Shown: positions 2,373 through 58,096, numbered from the stretch's first letter. The stretch: DNA of 64,000 bases from an uncultured Candidatus Saccharibacteria bacterium (GCA_964607805.1 CAZSLF010000001.1:78613-142612); one strand, 5' to 3'. Notes: generated by a model not told the origin, from the sequence alone. Numbers and translations: made by a program.

Positions 2373-2424
2373 GGCACACACAAGAAAAAACCTGCAGCAG
2401 TGCAGGTTTTTTCTTGTGTGTGCC
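2373..2424. terminator. 24-bp perfect hairpin, bidirectional terminator-like, abutting the tRNA 3' end
   Basis: ggcacacacaagaaaaaacctgca / gcag / tgcaggttttttcttgtgtgtgcc. The stem contains a core GC hairpin flanked by complementary A and T tracts. The right arm overlaps the last 4 nt of the tRNA. Confidence 0.6.
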
Positions 2425-3399: not shown

Positions 3400-4179
3400 C
3401 TATTCAAGCAACAATAATAGCGCCATGGCAATAATACCGCCTAAAATAACCATAATATGCTTGATAAAATCCTTACTATGATTTCGTTTTAGCTCAGGAA
3501 TCAAATCGGCGCAGGCAATATATATAAATCCTCCAGCAGCTGTCGCCAAGAAGTATGGTAAATATTGCTCAAATATATCTGAATAATTTTGAAAATACGC
3601 TACCAATAGAAAACCTCCAATCGCAGCACAAGATGAAATAAAATTAAAGAAAAGAGCTTTTTTCTTACTCCATCCTCCATATATAAGAAGACCAATATCC
3701 CCAATTTCTTGCGGAATTTCATGCAAAATCACAGCAATAGTTGTTGCAATCCCAACTTCAATCCCAAGACTGAATCCAATTGCGATAATAATACCGTCAA
3801 TAAAATTGTGAATTCCGTCCGCAATCGTCACAAGCGTCCCAATATGATTTCCATGATCATGACTTTCTTCCTCACCGTCATGACTATGGTGCCAGTGCAG
3901 TCCGTATTCAAGAGCTAGAAACATAAAAAATCCAACTAAAACAAAAATTCCAACATAACCGCCAGCGAAACCTCCTGTTAGGCCACCCGAACCTTCAAAA
4001 GCCTCCGGCAAGAGGTGAATTGTAGCATCGCCAATCAAAGCACCCGCTGAAAGACTAACAAGATATGGCAAAACTTTCTTTAACTTTTCTTTTGAAATGA
4101 TAAAAAGCAAACCACCAATAAAAGAGACCAGACTCGTTACAATAATACTTATTAATCCGTATACAAATGAAATTTCCAT
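3400..4179 (-). CDS. ZIP family metal (zinc) transporter
   Basis: 259 aa polytopic protein. ZIP signatures HNFIDGIIIA and HEIPQEIGD. His-rich loop HWHHSHDGEEESHDHGNH. Confidence 0.85.
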   Translation of the reverse strand: MEISFVYGLISIIVTSLVSFIGGLLFIISKEKLKKVLPYLVSLSAGALIGDATIHLLPEAFEGSGGLTGGFAGGYVGIFVLVGFFMFLALEYGLHWHHSHDGEEESHDHGNHIGTLVTIADGIHNFIDGIIIAIGFSLGIEVGIATTIAVILHEIPQEIGDIGLLIYGGWSKKKALFFNFISSCAAIGGFLLVAYFQNYSDIFEQYLPYFLATAAGGFIYIACADLIPELKRNHSKDFIKHIMVILGGIIAMALLLLLE

Positions 4180-4863: not shown

Positions 4864-4899
4864 TGATATTTGTATATTATCCCCTTTTCTCCATTTTGT

Positions 4900-4920
4900 A
4901 AATGAGACTCAGTCTCATTT
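4900..4920. promoter_or_regulatory. Fur-family operator candidate, perfect 10-1-10 palindrome
   Basis: aaatgagact c agtctcattt, 37 nt upstream of the regulator start. On the minus strand it follows TTGACG, so it covers the spacer and -10 region of a putative promoter. Confidence 0.65.
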
Positions 4921-4964
4921 AGCGTCAATTTTAACCCTTATTTATAGCCATAAGATAAAAGCGT

Positions 4965-4985
4965 AAATGAGATTGAGTCTCATTT
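4965..4985. promoter_or_regulatory. second copy of the palindromic operator (1 mismatch)
   Basis: aaatgagatt g agtctcattt, in the divergent intergenic region between the Fur-family gene and the DsbB-like gene. Confidence 0.55.
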
Positions 4986-5097
4986 AGAAACTTGCACCAA
5001 GAGACATATTTATCTCCTATTCCAAAAAGAAATATATTTTCAGTTTTTCAGTAAAATAAAATAGATGCTATAATTTCAATACCTTTAATTCAATACC

Positions 5098-11248: not shown

Positions 11249-11296
11249 ACAACTCTGTCCGATTTTCAGTTAGTTCTTTGAGTTTAATACTTCTTT

Positions 11297-11388
11297 AGGA
11301 GAGCAATATGCGCGCGATTTGTGATTAAGCCGGCCAAACCAAACTTACATGGCCAAACATCCACCAATCGTTCATATATTGCTCTCCT
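11297..11388 (+). promoter_or_regulatory. structured leader element closed by a 13-bp perfect stem, with an SD-preceded 6-codon mini-ORF
   Basis: aggagagcaatat (11297-11309) pairs with atattgctctcct (11376-11388). Mini-ORF ATG CGC GCG ATT TGT GAT TAA at 11308-11328; its AGGAG and ATG sit in the left arm. Further hairpins follow up to 11610. Confidence 0.45.
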
Positions 11389-11614
11389 CAAGACAATGTC
11401 GTTTGAAAGGAGAAAAGCAAGGTAGCCCTATTCATTTACTTCACATACTTACTGCCATAAACAGTGTATATGCCAAGTACTTGAACTCAGCGCGATAGCT
11501 CGCACTGAGGCTGGTCACTACCCCGTTAGTGAGAACGGAAAAGAGATGCATTGACTCACAAAATCAATGTTGAACAAACAAAAAAGTCCTCGGCAAAACT
11601 GAGGCGCTCCAAAC

Positions 11615-14408: not shown

Positions 14409-14482
14409 TCTATTGAAAAGCGCGACAGCTTGTGCGGTTCTTGCCGCTTAACTTGCCGCGCTTTTCTGTTACCATATTAAAT

Positions 14483-38717: not shown

Positions 38718-39230
38718 TCAACCCTTGAGAGGGGCGCCTTCGGCGCCCCTTTTTTCAATATACAAAAAATCTTTTTCACTAACTGGCTGAATAGAAAGTC
38801 GCATGCCTTTTTTAGCAACTAGAATTCCTGCAAGCTTCGGATCATTTTTAATTTCCGAAAGTGGCACTAGGCGCGGAAACTTTTTTACAAATTTAATATC
38901 AACCAAATCCCAGATAATTTTAGGGTTCTTCTCAAAATAATCACTTTTCTTATCGCGGGCTGTAGGATCAGGATATGGCTTACTAGCGACCTTCGCAATT
39001 CCTGCCGCACCAATATCTTTAGCCTCCTTCGCACTTGAGTGATAAAACAAACATAAATCCCCGACTTTCATACTATCTCGCATATAGTTTCGGGCCTGAT
39101 AGTTTCTAATTCCAGTCCAAGGTGTGCTGCCGTCGGTCTTGAGGTGATCGATAGAATATGTAGTAGGTTCTGATTTAATTAACCAATACTTTTTTTCACC
39201 AGTTTGTTTTTTGTTTGCAGGACTTTCCAT
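38718..39230 (-). CDS. EVE (PUA-like) domain protein
   Basis: 170 aa. YWLIKSEPTTYSIDHL...WTGIRNYQARNYMRDSMKVGDLCLFYHS. Confidence 0.8.
   Translation of the reverse strand: MESPANKKQTGEKKYWLIKSEPTTYSIDHLKTDGSTPWTGIRNYQARNYMRDSMKVGDLCLFYHSSAKEAKDIGAAGIAKVASKPYPDPTARDKKSDYFEKNPKIIWDLVDIKFVKKFPRLVPLSEIKNDPKLAGILVAKKGMRLSIQPVSEKDFLYIEKRGAEGAPLKG
38730..38755 (+). terminator. plus-strand intrinsic terminator of islet F, embedded in the 3' end of the EVE gene
   Basis: aggggcgcc / ttc / ggcgcccct followed by ttttt. The T tract is present only on the plus strand. Confidence 0.7.
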
Positions 39231-39246
39231 TATCCAAAAATTAATA

Positions 39247-39837
39247 TTAAAACTTCCTAATCACAGCCCTCACAACCGCACGAATATCTAACTCATATTC
39301 AGGATATATATTCTTATAATTTTCGTTTGCAGGTTCTAGGTATGTTTTGCCACTTTTATCCTGTCTATAATATTTCATAGTCCAACCGCCGTCGACCAAA
39401 GCAACAACTATCTCACCTAACTTTGGCTTATCTGTTCGCTCAACCAAAACCATATCACCTTCTGTTATATGCGCTTCAATCATAGAATCACCCTTAACCT
39501 CTAGCATAAAAGTTTCGCCCTTAACGTCACCCAATAAGAACTCCTCAACACTTGTATTGTCCAAAAAATCTGTACCTGTACTAGCCTCAGCTGCAGTTGG
39601 AATACCCGCTTCAACTACACCGAGCATTGGTACATCACCAAAAAAAGACCTCATGGATAATTTTCCACGACTGTCTTTTTCAAAAATGCCCTCATCTACT
39701 AATTTAGTTATTAATTTAAAGACGGCATTTTTAGATTTGAAACCTGTAAGAGTCTGAAATTCCTTATAACCTGGGACACGGCGCGTCTCTCTACAGAATT
39801 CCATTATTTTCTTTTTATACGATTCAAAGTCTGTCAT
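39247..39837 (-). CDS. lexA: LexA repressor
   Basis: 196 aa. N-terminal winged helix, cleavage site VEAG, S24 peptidase motifs VKGDSM and TMKYY. Confidence 0.9.
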   Translation of the reverse strand: MTDFESYKKKIMEFCRETRRVPGYKEFQTLTGFKSKNAVFKLITKLVDEGIFEKDSRGKLSMRSFFGDVPMLGVVEAGIPTAAEASTGTDFLDNTSVEEFLLGDVKGETFMLEVKGDSMIEAHITEGDMVLVERTDKPKLGEIVVALVDGGWTMKYYRQDKSGKTYLEPANENYKNIYPEYELDIRAVVRAVIRKF

Positions 39838-39887
39838 AAATTTGTTCTAGTTTGAAGCACTTAGCGCGCTCACAATCTGATTATATC

Positions 39888-40079
39888 CTAGAACAGTGCA
39901 TATGTAAGTGTTCGCGCAATTGAGGCATCGCTTTCAAGTCTTCGAAGCTTGTGCACCAATTCTCGATGATGTCGCGCTTCTCTTTCATATCTCTGGCCTT
40001 TCATAATCTTCTTATCAATTTTGCTATTTAGCTTACTAATTTCTTTGCCGATCATAAACATAAGTGTAATCTTTGTCAT
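39888..40079 (-). CDS. hypothetical 63-aa protein, first gene of the SOS-box-controlled transcript
   Basis: ORF between the SOS promoter and lexA. Short hydrophobic N-terminus, basic helical remainder. Confidence 0.45.
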   Translation of the reverse strand: MTKITLMFMIGKEISKLNSKIDKKIMKGQRYEREARHHRELVHKLRRLESDASIARTLTYALF

Positions 40080-40195
40080 ATTATTTTTTGGGTTTTATTT
40101 AAGTTTTATTAATTCTTAATCTAAATTTTATTTTAATTTTAGATAATGGTTTTGGGTTGGATACTCAAGCGTTTTTACTATTTCTGGATGTTTTT

Positions 40196-40224
40196 ATTAT
40201 AGGTGAACCATGGTTCACCGTCAA
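40196..40224 (-). promoter_or_regulatory. sigma70-type promoter with a perfect LexA (GAAC-N4-GTTC) box in the spacer
   Basis: Minus strand reads TTGACG gtGAACcatgGTTCacc TATAAT (-35 rc of 40219-40224, -10 rc of 40196-40201). The box is part of the 18-bp palindrome at 40202-40219. Confidence 0.8.
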
Positions 40225-40247
40225 CACTTAGTCTGTGGATAAGTAGA

Positions 40248-40306
40248 AAATTATAGTATCTTCCTCTGCTACGCTTCGCTATTCGCATAGGAAGATACTA
40301 TAATTT
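40248..40306. other. 18-bp perfect hairpin with a 23-nt loop (hairpin 1)
   Basis: aaattatagtatcttcct / ctgctacgcttcgctattcgcat / aggaagatactataattt, 24 nt upstream of the SOS promoter -35. Confidence 0.8.
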
Positions 40307-40424
40307 CCCACTCATTCACTTCCTAGTCACAACTAAATTGCATTTAAAAATTTACAATTAATGCACCTCAAATTAAAGAATCCATATCGATAACTTCACC
40401 CTACTCACACTCACCACCCCAAGT

Positions 40425-40499
40425 CTGAATAACAAATATAAATACCCTCTATGCGCATAGCGAAGCGTAGCAGAGAGGGTATTTATATTTGTTATTCAG
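40425..40499. terminator. 26-bp perfect hairpin with a 23-nt loop (hairpin 2), directly after the stop of the 916-aa gene
   Basis: ctgaataacaaatataaataccctct / atgcgcatagcgaagcgtagcag / agagggtatttatatttgttattcag. The loop is the reverse complement of the hairpin 1 loop (22 of 23). Confidence 0.7.
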
Positions 40500-40500
40500 T

Positions 40501-43251
40501 TTACCAGTTCCCCGCACCCTTTGGATTTGTTCCCGCACGGAGCTCCTCGTAATCTGATTTTTTGTCACCATCTGTATCACTCTTATTCGGATCTGTTCCT
40601 ATATAAATTTCTAGATCATTTGAAAGTCTGTCTTTATCAGTGTCGATTTTTTTATTTGCTCCGGCTTGTATTGATTCATCTTTTTCTGTGGCGGTGTTTA
40701 CTCCATTTACAAAAGGTAAACCAAAAATAGTAACTTTATCACCGTAATAATCACCCATACCGTACTCATACATAAGCGTATAACTACTTTTAGGCACAGA
40801 TGGTAATTTCATATCATAAACTAATTCATAACTAGAATTACTTATACGTTTATATACAATATTTTGTCCTGGTTGTGAAGAAAATGCGTTTTTCAAACTA
40901 CCTCCATAAATTGGACGTGTGGATGTAGAGAATTGATATCGATAAAAGTAATCATCATCTCCGCTTCCTTTAAATATATCTTTAAATGTGCTGCTAGCTA
41001 TCACCAAATCAGCAGTAGATCTTTCCAAATCTTCAAGAGTCAAAGGAAGTGTTCCTGAATATCGCGTATATTCCCTAATTCCACTTTGAATATTTAAAAT
41101 ACGTGAACGTTGTTGTTCATACAAAATATCATCCTTACTCTTACCTGTAACTTGAGAATATGCATCAATATATGGCAATGGATTCTCTGGAGCCACCACA
41201 TCATTATTTCCATTTACATTACTTAAAGAAATTCTAAAATTTGTTTCAAGTTGTTTTTTGAGAGTATTTCCCTTTGGTGCAGTCTTATTAAACACATCAA
41301 TATATGCCGGCAAACCCTTTGTATCCACACCAACTAATGTTTTTGTATGGTCACGGAAATAGTTGAAATAATATGCGAACTTTTCACTTTTAAGTTCCTT
41401 AAGATCTTCAGCATTTTGAACTGCATTTCCTTGTAATATTGCTTCATCTCCAAATTGAGATTTGAGATGAGCTGGAAGACCTTCAACAAATGCAATAAGA
41501 TTATTCAAATTTGGCTTTACTTCATATTCATATATCACTCGCTTATCTGCACCAACTATTTTTACTGGCTCGCCAATAACTTCAAGAACCTGCTTTTGAT
41601 TTGCAAATTCTAAAATAGCTACATATTGCTTTTTTAAGTCTTTCTTATCAGTATCACCAGTTCCACCTATGTCATCACTTCCGATATCAAATATTGAAAA
41701 ATAATCTCCCAAAGAATCCTGTACATCTTCTTCGGTTATAGAAATCCATTTGTCCTTAATTGTTGATAAGTCCATGAAAAAAGCTGGGAATGTATTCACT
41801 CGCACATAAAAATTATCAGCTAATTTTATAGACTCAATATCGACAGCGATACTTACACCATCACCTGTATAATCTGCTTTCACTCCAAACTTTCCGTCAT
41901 TTGAATTTCCTTTTTTATTATAAATTCCTGAAATAGATGAACTAAACTTAGCATCCGATGGAATCATAGACATGATATCTTCACTCGAATCATATAGTGA
42001 ACTTGAATAGCCTGGGCTGAAATTGTCGTCTAACCCTGAACCCGAATCAATATCTGGGAATTTATCAAAATCTACTTCGACAACACCTGCTTCCATAGGT
42101 GCAGTTTTGAAAGACATCGAAGCTTCATATGCAGCAGTATCAACAGAAGCTATACTTTTGGCAAAACCTTCTATGAAGTTTTCTTTTGAAAATGGCGCCT
42201 GCACGAATAAATAAACTCCATGAACATATTTAATATATGCAAATCCTAATCCGCCAATACATCCCAAGATAACTATGAGCCAAATTATCATCTTAACTGC
42301 CCCACCACTATTTTGTGCCTTTACGCTTTGCGTCGGTGCCGCAACAGGCGTCACAATTGGTGCAGGAGATCCGTATGCTGAATTAGTTGGCGGTATTTGA
42401 TTCTGAGTCTGTGTTGTACCAGAACTTTGTGGCAAAGGAGACTCAGAGATACCAGCCATTTTTGCACCTCTTAACCTTGCAACAGCTTCAGCCTGCGCAG
42501 GTGTCATAGTGGGTATTGCAGTACTAGCTATCTGACCCACGCTCATATTATTTGCTTCAATACTGGCTTTATTTGCAGATTTCGTTGCATTTCCAATTTC
42601 TTCTGCCCATCCGACAGGAATACGAGATTCTTTAACTGCTGAAGACGCAGAAACAGACGCAGCCGCAGGTCCAACTGCAGGTGTAGTCGAAGGCGGATTA
42701 TCTCCCATAATATCTTTATATGAAAAATTAGGTTTAAGAGAAGGGACCGGAGCGCCGAAGTTATCCGCGGGGATACTAATAGAAATTGGCGATTGTGCCG
42801 CTGATGGCCCCAATGTAGGCACAGAAGCCGGCGTAACCACAGACACTGGTGCAGGTGCCGCTGTATAAGTCGGCACCGAAATCGCAGGAGAAGGAGGTGT
42901 GGGAGGATTCGAAGATATAGATTGTACTTTCTGTTGTACTTGCTCGAAAGTTGGATACGGAATTGTATTAGTGATCAACTCCTCTGGCTGTTTTTCAATA
43001 ACCCTTGTCGCAGCGGGCGAACTTGAAGATGTTGAAGAACTAATCGGCGCGGACTGTGTTAAAGGTGCAGAAGCAATTGGCGAAGTAGCAGAGATTTCAG
43101 GTGTTGGTGTGACGCCATTTATTTCTCTAAATGTTTTTTCTATTTCGTCTATATTCCATCCATCTTTTAGAAGATAAATTTTAATAGACTTATCCGTTAT
43201 TCCCGGATTATAACTTTTTAAAGAGCGAATATACTCACTGAGACTTGGCAT
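40501..43251 (-). CDS. hypothetical large single-pass membrane protein with Pro/Ser/Ala-rich region and C-terminal Ca-binding-type Asp repeats
   Basis: 916 aa. TM at VKMIIWLIVILGCIGGLGFAYI. C-terminus DTDKDRLSNDLE...DPNKSDTDGDKKSDYEE (thrombospondin type 3-like). Confidence 0.7.
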   Translation of the reverse strand: MPSLSEYIRSLKSYNPGITDKSIKIYLLKDGWNIDEIEKTFREINGVTPTPEISATSPIASAPLTQSAPISSSTSSSSPAATRVIEKQPEELITNTIPYPTFEQVQQKVQSISSNPPTPPSPAISVPTYTAAPAPVSVVTPASVPTLGPSAAQSPISISIPADNFGAPVPSLKPNFSYKDIMGDNPPSTTPAVGPAAASVSASSAVKESRIPVGWAEEIGNATKSANKASIEANNMSVGQIASTAIPTMTPAQAEAVARLRGAKMAGISESPLPQSSGTTQTQNQIPPTNSAYGSPAPIVTPVAAPTQSVKAQNSGGAVKMIIWLIVILGCIGGLGFAYIKYVHGVYLFVQAPFSKENFIEGFAKSIASVDTAAYEASMSFKTAPMEAGVVEVDFDKFPDIDSGSGLDDNFSPGYSSSLYDSSEDIMSMIPSDAKFSSSISGIYNKKGNSNDGKFGVKADYTGDGVSIAVDIESIKLADNFYVRVNTFPAFFMDLSTIKDKWISITEEDVQDSLGDYFSIFDIGSDDIGGTGDTDKKDLKKQYVAILEFANQKQVLEVIGEPVKIVGADKRVIYEYEVKPNLNNLIAFVEGLPAHLKSQFGDEAILQGNAVQNAEDLKELKSEKFAYYFNYFRDHTKTLVGVDTKGLPAYIDVFNKTAPKGNTLKKQLETNFRISLSNVNGNNDVVAPENPLPYIDAYSQVTGKSKDDILYEQQRSRILNIQSGIREYTRYSGTLPLTLEDLERSTADLVIASSTFKDIFKGSGDDDYFYRYQFSTSTRPIYGGSLKNAFSSQPGQNIVYKRISNSSYELVYDMKLPSVPKSSYTLMYEYGMGDYYGDKVTIFGLPFVNGVNTATEKDESIQAGANKKIDTDKDRLSNDLEIYIGTDPNKSDTDGDKKSDYEELRAGTNPKGAGNW

Positions 43252-57930: not shown

Positions 57931-58046
57931 GTTATCTAATTATAAATGATTTCCCACATTTTCAACTAGATGACAAAGGATAACTTTTATGGCGTTTTGG
58001 GTCCTCCAGAAATCCAGAACTCTACCAAAGTAAGTGAGTTTACATA

Positions 58047-58077
58047 GCAAAAACCCACCAATTGGTGGGTTTTTGCT
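58047..58077. terminator. intrinsic terminator after the giant gene
   Basis: agcaaaaacccacc aatt ggtgggtttttgct, a perfect palindrome. Confidence 0.8.
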
Positions 58078-58096
58078 AATTTCAATTTACTAGTCC

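Follow-up and report, generated by a model that had tools for sequence, protein, structure and literature searches.

What keeps two long hairpins with unrelated stems and nearly the same tip in opposite orientation side by side between two genes, and what might such a pair do there? This question is raised by a locus in a 64,000-nt stretch of an uncultured Candidatus Saccharibacteria genome (GCA_964607805.1, CAZSLF010000001.1:78613-142612), a chromosomal sequence of Patescibacteria (candidate phyla radiation, CPR), from a very small bacterium of groundwater type, with a GC content of ~37%. Throughout, the window refers to this whole stretch, with coordinates counted from its first letter. The 2 hairpins, hairpin 2 and hairpin 1 in the order in which the minus strand is read, lie between a gene for a 916-aa surface protein and the LexA-box promoter of the lexA operon (Table 1). 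The account that we favour, with confidence somewhat above even, is that they are 2 copies of a small palindromic repeat, the arms of which would be kept complementary by template switching, and that the pair would serve as an insulator at this locus and the tip as a recognition site.

Hairpins with perfect stems of 18 and 26 bp had been recognized in a sequence-only reading of this DNA, and both were recovered by a repeat finder as well as by direct reading of positions 39900-40800. The arms of hairpin 2 (40425-40454 and 40470-40499) are 97% complementary, and in hairpin 1 the perfect stem formed by 40248-40265 and 40289-40306 is embedded in arms (40235-40269 and 40285-40319) that are 86% complementary. 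The loops, taken to be 23 nt long in that reading, contain 6 further stem positions in both hairpins (CTCTGC/GCATAG, with one mismatch), so that the unpaired tip is ~15 nt in each. The tips are joined by a 27-nt inverted repeat, CTCTGCTACGCTTCGCTAT[T/G]CGCATAG (40264-40290 and 40449-40475), the copies of which are 96% complementary and 158 nt apart. As had been proposed, the same 23-mer is thus presented in inverted orientation on unrelated stems: the arms of hairpins 1 and 2 display no significant similarity to each other within the window (p ~0.6) and, going by the sister species described below, could be old paralogues. It was also correct that the 23-mer is found nowhere else in the window, with exactly 2 occurrences at up to 3 mismatches and 0 in shuffled sequences; no match of 11 nt or longer complementary to the core is present in the rest of the window. 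The tip has a GC content of 63%, compared with 33-37% in the surrounding region, the plus strand of the hairpin 2 core carries the mini-hairpin motif GCGAAGC, and the folding z-scores of the region against shuffles are −8.5 as RNA and −10.8 as DNA.

The tip belongs to a family that extends to distantly related bacteria. An exact-pattern scan with GCTACGCTTCGCTATNCGC, covering one genome per species for 185,579 species, yielded 49 loci, including 33 in a single Peregrinibacteria metagenome-assembled genome (MAG; JACPHH01) and 3 in Perlucidibaca/Paraperlucidibaca, and at all of these 33 and 3 loci the core forms the apex of a long hairpin. The family core spans ~19 nt, GCTACGCTTCGCTAT[G/T]CGC, with ATAGCG[A/C]AGCGT, which contains GCGNAGC, as the minimal conserved stretch. 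The suggestion that the hairpins represent a repeat family with a conserved loop is therefore borne out, the 19-nt core tipping ~40 Peregrinibacteria and 3 Perlucidibaca hairpin loci, and the same copies, by placing the 23-mer in a repeat family, contradict the notion of a device peculiar to this locus. GCGNAGC, a G-C/C-G clamp around a GNA triloop, reads GCGAAGC in both copies of the window and in every exact copy of the family. In the second hairpin of Perlucidibaca it is GCGCAGC, the A/C change affecting the free N; ACGAAGT, with a compensatory change, is found in one diverged copy.

In the Peregrinibacteria MAG, the core is the center of an element of ~135 nt resembling a transposable element of the miniature inverted-repeat type (MITE), with terminal inverted repeats GTAYYTGCCCACCGC, asymmetric spacers and an inner stem, GGGGCGGGGACTCCATTT / AAATGGNAGTCCCCGCCCC, which is resolved into covarying subfamilies. 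Including diverged ones, there are ~40 copies, all intergenic and each of them single, placed between 23 co-directional, 7 divergent and 1 convergent gene pairs; neither a bias in orientation nor a preference for the 3′ ends of genes is apparent, and the sense strand has no folding advantage (p = 0.56). In 4 of the 40 copies the tip is inverted relative to the asymmetric outer spacers. No recurring open reading frame (ORF) was found beside the copies. The right arm of several copies harbors another, nested palindrome of ~170 nt that is bounded by terminal repeats CAGGAACTCACACAAA and is always inserted immediately behind TCAAATGG, adjoining the tip (positions 3600-3775 of locus L008, and also L004, L015, L027, L031 and L039).

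The gammaproteobacterial loci are orthologous to one another and come from the cultured isolate Paraperlucidibaca wandonensis (CCUG 63419) and 2 other genomes of the Perlucidibaca group. There, the first hairpin, with a 29-bp stem and the exact core at its tip, follows the stop codon of a gene for an old-yellow-enzyme-type oxidoreductase, and ~40-55 nt further a second hairpin presents a diverged core in the opposite orientation on an unrelated stem of 23-24 bp. The architecture of the window, namely a gene stop, a hairpin with a sense core and a hairpin with an antisense core on an unrelated stem, is thus repeated; the pair is intact in 2 of the species and degraded in the third. No mobile genes were found near the Perlucidibaca copies. 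The GC content of the stems tracks the host, being AT-rich in the window and GC-rich in Perlucidibaca.

When 12 hairpins of the 3 lineages are aligned without gaps, invariant columns are confined to the tip. Over a 20-pair stem, 78% of the cells are paired in the 12 sequences, compared with 56% in shuffles, and 18 of the 20 stem pairs change on both sides, which was reached by 0 of 500 shuffles. A covariance model built from this alignment retrieved the 2 window copies at 72.5 and 68 bits and no third copy in the 64 kb, the next matches being ordinary gene-end hairpins at 18 bits or less. Rfam contains no matching family for the hairpins: the scan of the window at gathering threshold returned only the tRNA at 2421-2493, and a known RNA family was dismissed as a candidate, permissive scans returning generic microRNA-precursor-like hairpins far below threshold.

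The remaining loci of the genome scan lie in the coding sequence of EF-Tu or are chance-like, and so do all 16 loci of a metagenome scan; a hairpin is formed in none of them. At least 15 exact core matches fall in EF-Tu coding sequence, within the codons for LRFAIR. The tuf-matching loci (L006, L009, L010, L028, L032, L041, L044, L045, L048, L051-L053, L055, L056, L061 and L065) are scattered over unrelated genomes, including one Berkelbacteria (CPR) genome. A link of the core to tuf was considered and rejected: the similarity ends at the core edge, and the total of non-hairpin matches is close to the ~17 that we estimate to be expected by chance for an 18-base pattern in 596 Gb, so that the identity to tuf is judged a coincidence. 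Viral, plasmid, phage and Escherichia coli collections contained no significant match to the core, and a literature search with the core sequence returned only unrelated primer matches.

Comparison with related species allowed us to follow the element at this very locus. Six syntenic species were retrieved through their LexA homologues. In 5 of them (LexA 79-87% identical) the DnaA box is followed by ~20 nt and the LexA-box promoter, with neither core nor hairpins, indicating that the element is restricted to the clade formed by the window species and the sixth, sister species (locus L066), in which LexA is 99% identical and the flanking DNA, at 76-80% nucleotide identity, is that of a different species. 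Hairpin 2 is kept in the sister species; its arms are ~74% identical to those in the window with substitutions mirrored on both arms, and its tip matches that of the window at 22 of 22 positions, for which we estimate a neutral expectation of ~0.4% at a background identity of ~78%. Hairpin 1 has kept its core with 2 changes and an identical promoter-side arm, and the other arm is absent: 27 nt stand in place of the 118-nt spacer, which is not conserved, and the distal arm of hairpin 1 (40289-40319). The similarity between the 2 species breaks exactly at the hairpin 1 core, and the arm adjoining the sense core is collinear in both. In the comparison of the sister species with positions 38751-40287 of the window, the lexA control region is either far more conserved than its neighborhood or recently exchanged.

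The arms themselves point to the surrounding DNA as a source. The promoter-proximal arm of hairpin 1 (40235-40265) takes in the ancestral DnaA box, and its distal outer arm, CCCACTCATTCAC (40307-40319), repeats the ancestral DnaA-box flank in inverted and decayed form, with 9 of 13 positions matching and all 4 differences being transitions. In the sister species, the arm and flank of hairpin 2 duplicate the segment from the DnaA box to the −35 hexamer (p ~0.001). Collectively, the decayed flank copy and this duplicate show that the arms were made partly from local DNA.

We propose that hairpins 1 and 2 would be the same repeat in opposite "flip" and "flop" orientations of the tip, with the repeat defined by the ~19-nt apical core and the stems, which would be built from and adapted to local DNA, lying outside the conserved unit. 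The element would have arisen in the common ancestor of the window species and its sister species, between the surface-protein gene and the promoter with its DnaA and LexA boxes. Template switching between the arms of inverted repeats is known to homogenize the arms, to invert the spacer and to expand the repeats (PMC8604942, PMC8794818, PMC13100816). Arms that diverge yet stay complementary, outward growth and tip inversion are the documented products of this process, so that the flip and flop of 2 old paralogous hairpins is the simplest explanation; intrastrand template switching during replication is most likely what would keep the arms complementary, lengthen them and sometimes invert the tip. 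The tip is under purifying selection and is probably a recognition site for a putative trans-acting factor, and we infer that it acts as a module for recognition or for nucleating structure. As had been noted, hairpin 2 begins 1 nt past the stop codon (40501-40503) of the 916-aa gene, and hairpin 1 lies close upstream of the regulated promoter, at 23 nt from the −35 hexamer rather than the 24 nt given earlier; this placement makes a transcript-end or insulator role the most economical one, and the hairpins would most probably form a strong structure of this kind that keeps upstream read-through out of the SOS-controlled promoter. Other hairpins with long stems and short loops are present at gene ends in the window (2373-2424, 14415-14466 and 58045-58078), and terminator-like hairpins with long stems seem to be usual for this genome. 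That at 2373-2424 has a 24-bp perfect stem directly after the tRNA gene and is followed by a second hairpin at 2116-2164, and that at 58045-58078 is a 17-bp loopless palindrome after a 1954-aa gene.

Several observations weigh against this proposal. A canonical terminator scan of 39700-40800 returned 0 sites, the tips, at 15-23 nt, being too long; hairpin 2 is followed by ACTTGGGG, which is no T-tract, and hairpin 1 by a partial tract, TTTTCTACTT. With neither 3′-end preference nor orientation or folding bias among the Peregrinibacteria copies, termination is not the general function of the family. Template switching, which we read from sequence patterns, gives no account of one 19-nt tip in 3 deeply separated lineages, and neither a transposase nor a vehicle nor a binding factor was found among the window ORFs or in the Peregrinibacteria and Perlucidibaca neighborhoods. 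There are only 2 copies in the 64 kb. Finally, the copies in other genomes were retrieved through exact matches to the core, a selection that exaggerates how conserved the core looks there; the comparison of the window with the sister species is free of this bias.

Two alternatives treat the complementarity of the tips as functional in itself. According to one of them, the tips would pair, as kissing loops or in a long-range duplex, in a read-through transcript and set the 3′ end or the stability of the upstream mRNA. The position of hairpin 2 next to the stop codon suits this possibility, as do the predicted stability of both hairpins as RNA (−41.7 kcal/mol for hairpin 2 and −44.2 kcal/mol for hairpin 1), the computed pairing energy of the free loop oligonucleotides (−37.9 kcal/mol), and the Perlucidibaca pair, which follows the same order of sense tip and then antisense tip. 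Of the 4 mismatches in the outer stem of hairpin 1, 3 become G-U pairs when read in the mRNA sense, but this fraction is not significant. However, one arm of hairpin 1 is missing from the sister species, in which the core is still kept, hairpin 2 lacks a U-tract and a canonical terminator call, Rfam offers no matching family, and the Peregrinibacteria copies, with no folding advantage for the sense strand, are single and found in either orientation, also between divergent genes, which argues against an obligatory loop-loop mechanism. We consider pairing between the tips unlikely, although the insulator part of the earlier idea of a tandem terminator or insulator is plausible. The other alternative, also raised in the sequence-only reading, is an invertible switch, in which a site-specific recombinase would invert the 158-nt segment between the 27-nt cores, destroying both stems and opening read-through into the lexA operon. 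Both the geometry, which is that of known invertons, and the break in similarity between the 2 species exactly at the hairpin 1 core, as at a recombination joint, would fit, and inversion of the tip relative to its flanks does occur in the Peregrinibacteria members of the family. Yet a Pfam scan of the ~56 ORFs of the window revealed neither a cognate serine or tyrosine recombinase nor any other recombinase, integrase or transposase domain, no promoter-like site is present inside the segment (40291-40448), and the core occurs as single copies in the Peregrinibacteria genome. In the sister species, 4 contigs from 4 sequencing runs were read, 3 further similar contigs being left out, and all 4 display a single orientation, collinear with the window; the sense-core arm is collinear between the 2 species, and, with one hairpin 1 arm lost, the logic of 2 stems is not conserved. 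Template switching, which is independent of a recombinase, accounts for tip inversion just as well (PMC8604942), so that opposite tips need not be recombination sites. A switch of this kind is accordingly very improbable.

Three further explanations concern the tip as such. A GCGNAGC-tipped hairpin on exposed single strands could recruit or exclude a replication protein (primase, RNA polymerase or SSB), in which case inverted pairs would give each strand one active tip. Mini-hairpins of the GCGNAGC type are reported to bind SSB poorly and to be present at single-strand priming sites, with cases at the G4 complementary-strand origin, RSF1010 ssiA and the N4 hairpin promoters (PMC13037366), and ssoA origins share the logic of a conserved tip on variable stems, with CS-6 in the loop (PMC4598088). 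The presence of GCGAAGC in the minimal tip, GCGCAGC in Perlucidibaca and the compensatory ACGAAGT speak for such a signal on single-stranded DNA (ssDNA), and the lack of orientation bias relative to transcription fits a role at the DNA level. Against it, CS-6 (TAGCGT) is not matched exactly and RSB is absent, the plasmid and phage collections hold no similar element, and the 7-nt motif leaves the other 12 nt of the 19-nt core unaccounted for; we regard ssDNA signalling by the hairpin tips as rather improbable. Alternatively, the hairpins could be selfish or neutral debris, a decayed MITE or remnant of a mobile element, with the tip kept by recent spread or by gene conversion between the inverted copies. 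The Peregrinibacteria core does sit in a typical MITE-like element with many intergenic copies, some with a second MITE nested in them, and no function was found for the element, but the full identity of the hairpin 2 tip amid diverged flanks, arms that are still complementary at ~26% divergence, a core that is identical across 3 deeply separated lineages, and window copies with neither terminal repeats nor target duplications around them make this quite improbable. A tentative further possibility, which we hold to be on the unlikely side, is that the 19-nt tip would be a horizontally spread module that nucleates its own hairpin through the ultra-stable GCGNAGC, promotes fold-back template switching and is bound by a putative conserved protein on ssDNA or RNA. 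If so, such palindromic elements, "apex-conserved, stem-free", would form a new class common to CPR bacteria and Proteobacteria, in which inverted pairs give one active tip per strand.

The apex-conserved repeat that we favour is best filed among intergenic palindromic repeats, with the apex, not the stems or ends, as its defining part. Known palindromic repeats (REP, REPIN, MITE and attC) conserve their stems or ends. Like the RAYT-mobilized REP, REPIN and BIME elements, the window hairpins are short intergenic palindromes of the kind that often form inverted pairs after gene ends, that are multi-copy in some genomes and for which roles in termination and mRNA stabilization have been proposed. 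What is conserved in REPs is the stem, together with a GTAG or CGTC tag at the base of the hairpin, and it is the loop that varies (PMC3733652, PMC3337134), whereas the window hairpins conserve the loop on unrelated stems, carry GTAG only inside the tip and have no Y1/RAYT gene nearby, none being detected in the Pfam scan of the window. The Peregrinibacteria element, with its size, terminal inverted repeats, intergenic copies and nested insertions, resembles MITEs such as Correia/NEMIS and ERIC. MITE families conserve their ends and not their centers; the window copies share only the central 19 nt with the Peregrinibacteria element and have neither shared ends nor target duplication. Inverted repeats generated by template switching likewise combine divergence with perfect arms and show mirrored multi-nucleotide changes, arms that grow outward and inversion of the spacer (PMC8794818, PMC8604942, PMC13100816), but quasipalindrome correction is a mutational process and not an element, and does not explain a recurrent 19-nt spacer. 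With ssoA and ssi the element shares a long hairpin, stems that vary, a short motif conserved at the apex and a tip with a mini-hairpin of the GCGNAGC type. However, ssoA is defined by CS-6 in the terminal loop and RSB in the stem (PMC4598088), whereas the window tip has TAGCGA and AAGCGT rather than TAGCGT and no RSB-like sequence, and the window element is chromosomal and intergenic, with no rolling-circle replicon nearby. Invertons, too, have an inverted repeat around a segment just upstream of a regulated operon, unlike which each repeat in the window is contained in its own hairpin.

Other known structures fit less well. Canonical intrinsic terminators have a G+C-rich stem, a loop of 3-8 nt and a T/U tract directly after it; the window hairpins fail both loop length and tract as intrinsic (Rho-independent) terminators. 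The guanidine-II (mini-ykkC) riboswitch consists of 2 hairpins with ACGR tetraloops in a 5′ untranslated region, and was rejected given the 15-nt tips, the position of the element upstream of the promoter and the lack of an Rfam match at E values up to 10. Integron attC sites carry the R″/L″ and L′/R′ boxes (RYYYAAC ... GTTRRRY) at the stem base and have a variable tip; on inspection, the stem bases of the window hairpins do not fit these boxes and the conservation is at the tip. Analogies to the K-turn, the T-arm and dif/Xer were checked by eye against the sequence and did not fit. In the present family it is the tip that is conserved, identical in 3 deeply separated lineages, on stems remade from local DNA. 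If this tip serves as a recognition site, there would be a putative nucleic-acid-binding activity common to ultra-small CPR bacteria and free-living Gammaproteobacteria, and the hairpins would provide a tractable example of template switching building and maintaining long perfect hairpins; if they are only selfish debris, the repeat is an ordinary one. Lying between a large surface-protein gene and an autoregulated lexA promoter, the element may shield SOS control from read-through.

On the minus strand, the order is the 916-aa gene, hairpin 2, 118 nt, hairpin 1, the DnaA box, the LexA-box promoter, a 63-aa ORF, lexA and a gene for an EVE-domain protein. The closest database relatives of the 196-aa lexA product are entries named LexA in Paceibacteria and Parcubacteria records. 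The 63-aa ORF has no Pfam match, and ORFs of 63-65 aa were called at its position in all 6 relatives; its leader of 116 nt is extremely AT-rich, with direct repeats at 40093-40141. The DnaA box is ancestral, being perfect or near-perfect in the window and in all 6 related species (L066 and L070-L074), and in each of these it precedes the −35 hexamer of the LexA-box promoter by 10-20 nt, which suggests DnaA input into the expression of the lexA operon in these CPR bacteria. A perfect DnaA box occurs once in the 64 kb, outside any box cluster. An oriC at this locus was rejected on the basis of the single box, the lack of a cluster and the lack of a GC-skew switch, and a phage or prophage setting was rejected as well, with no match to phage records and chromosomal housekeeping genes as neighbors.

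Table 1. Hairpins, core copies, genes and control sites at the lexA-operon locus of the window.
Feature	Coordinates	Strand	Description
916-aa gene	40501-43251	minus	surface-protein gene; bacterial TSP3 repeat at the C terminus; transcript would enter hairpin 2
Hairpin 2	40425-40499		26-bp perfect stem, then 1 mismatch, then 3 bp; 30-nt arms; 15-nt tip
Core copy, hairpin 2	40451-40473	minus (mRNA sense)	CTGCTACGCTTCGCTATGCGCAT; 19-nt family core at 40453-40471
Spacer between perfect stems	40307-40424		118 nt; 40307-40319 is part of the imperfect outer arm of hairpin 1
Hairpin 1	40235-40319		18-bp perfect stem within 40248-40306; imperfect outer stem extends the arms to 35 nt
Core copy, hairpin 1	40266-40288	plus (antisense to genes)	CTGCTACGCTTCGCTATTCGCAT; 19-nt core at 40268-40286
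DnaA box	40234-40242	minus	perfect consensus TTATCCACA; upstream of the −35 hexamer
lexA-operon promoter	40196-40224	minus	TTGACG-17-TATAAT, 11/12 matches; conserved in all relatives
LexA-box palindrome	40202-40219		GGTGAACCATGGTTCACC; GAAC-N4-GTTC, within the promoter spacer
Downstream operon	39247-40079	minus	63-aa ORF and lexA
63-aa ORF	39888-40079	minus	starts MTKITLM; between the LexA-box promoter and lexA
lexA	39247-39837	minus	196 aa; Peptidase_S24 domain

Elsewhere in the window, a long imperfect inverted repeat at 11292-11393 has 32-nt arms, 81% complementary, on either side of a 38-nt spacer. It is part of 900 nt of non-coding sequence upstream of a MarR-family gene and has no Rfam match. 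Between the genes for a Fur-family regulator and DsbB, positions 4895-4990 contain 2 copies of a 23-bp palindrome, TAAATGAGAYTSAGTCTCATTTA, which are 69 nt apart and look like paired operator sites.

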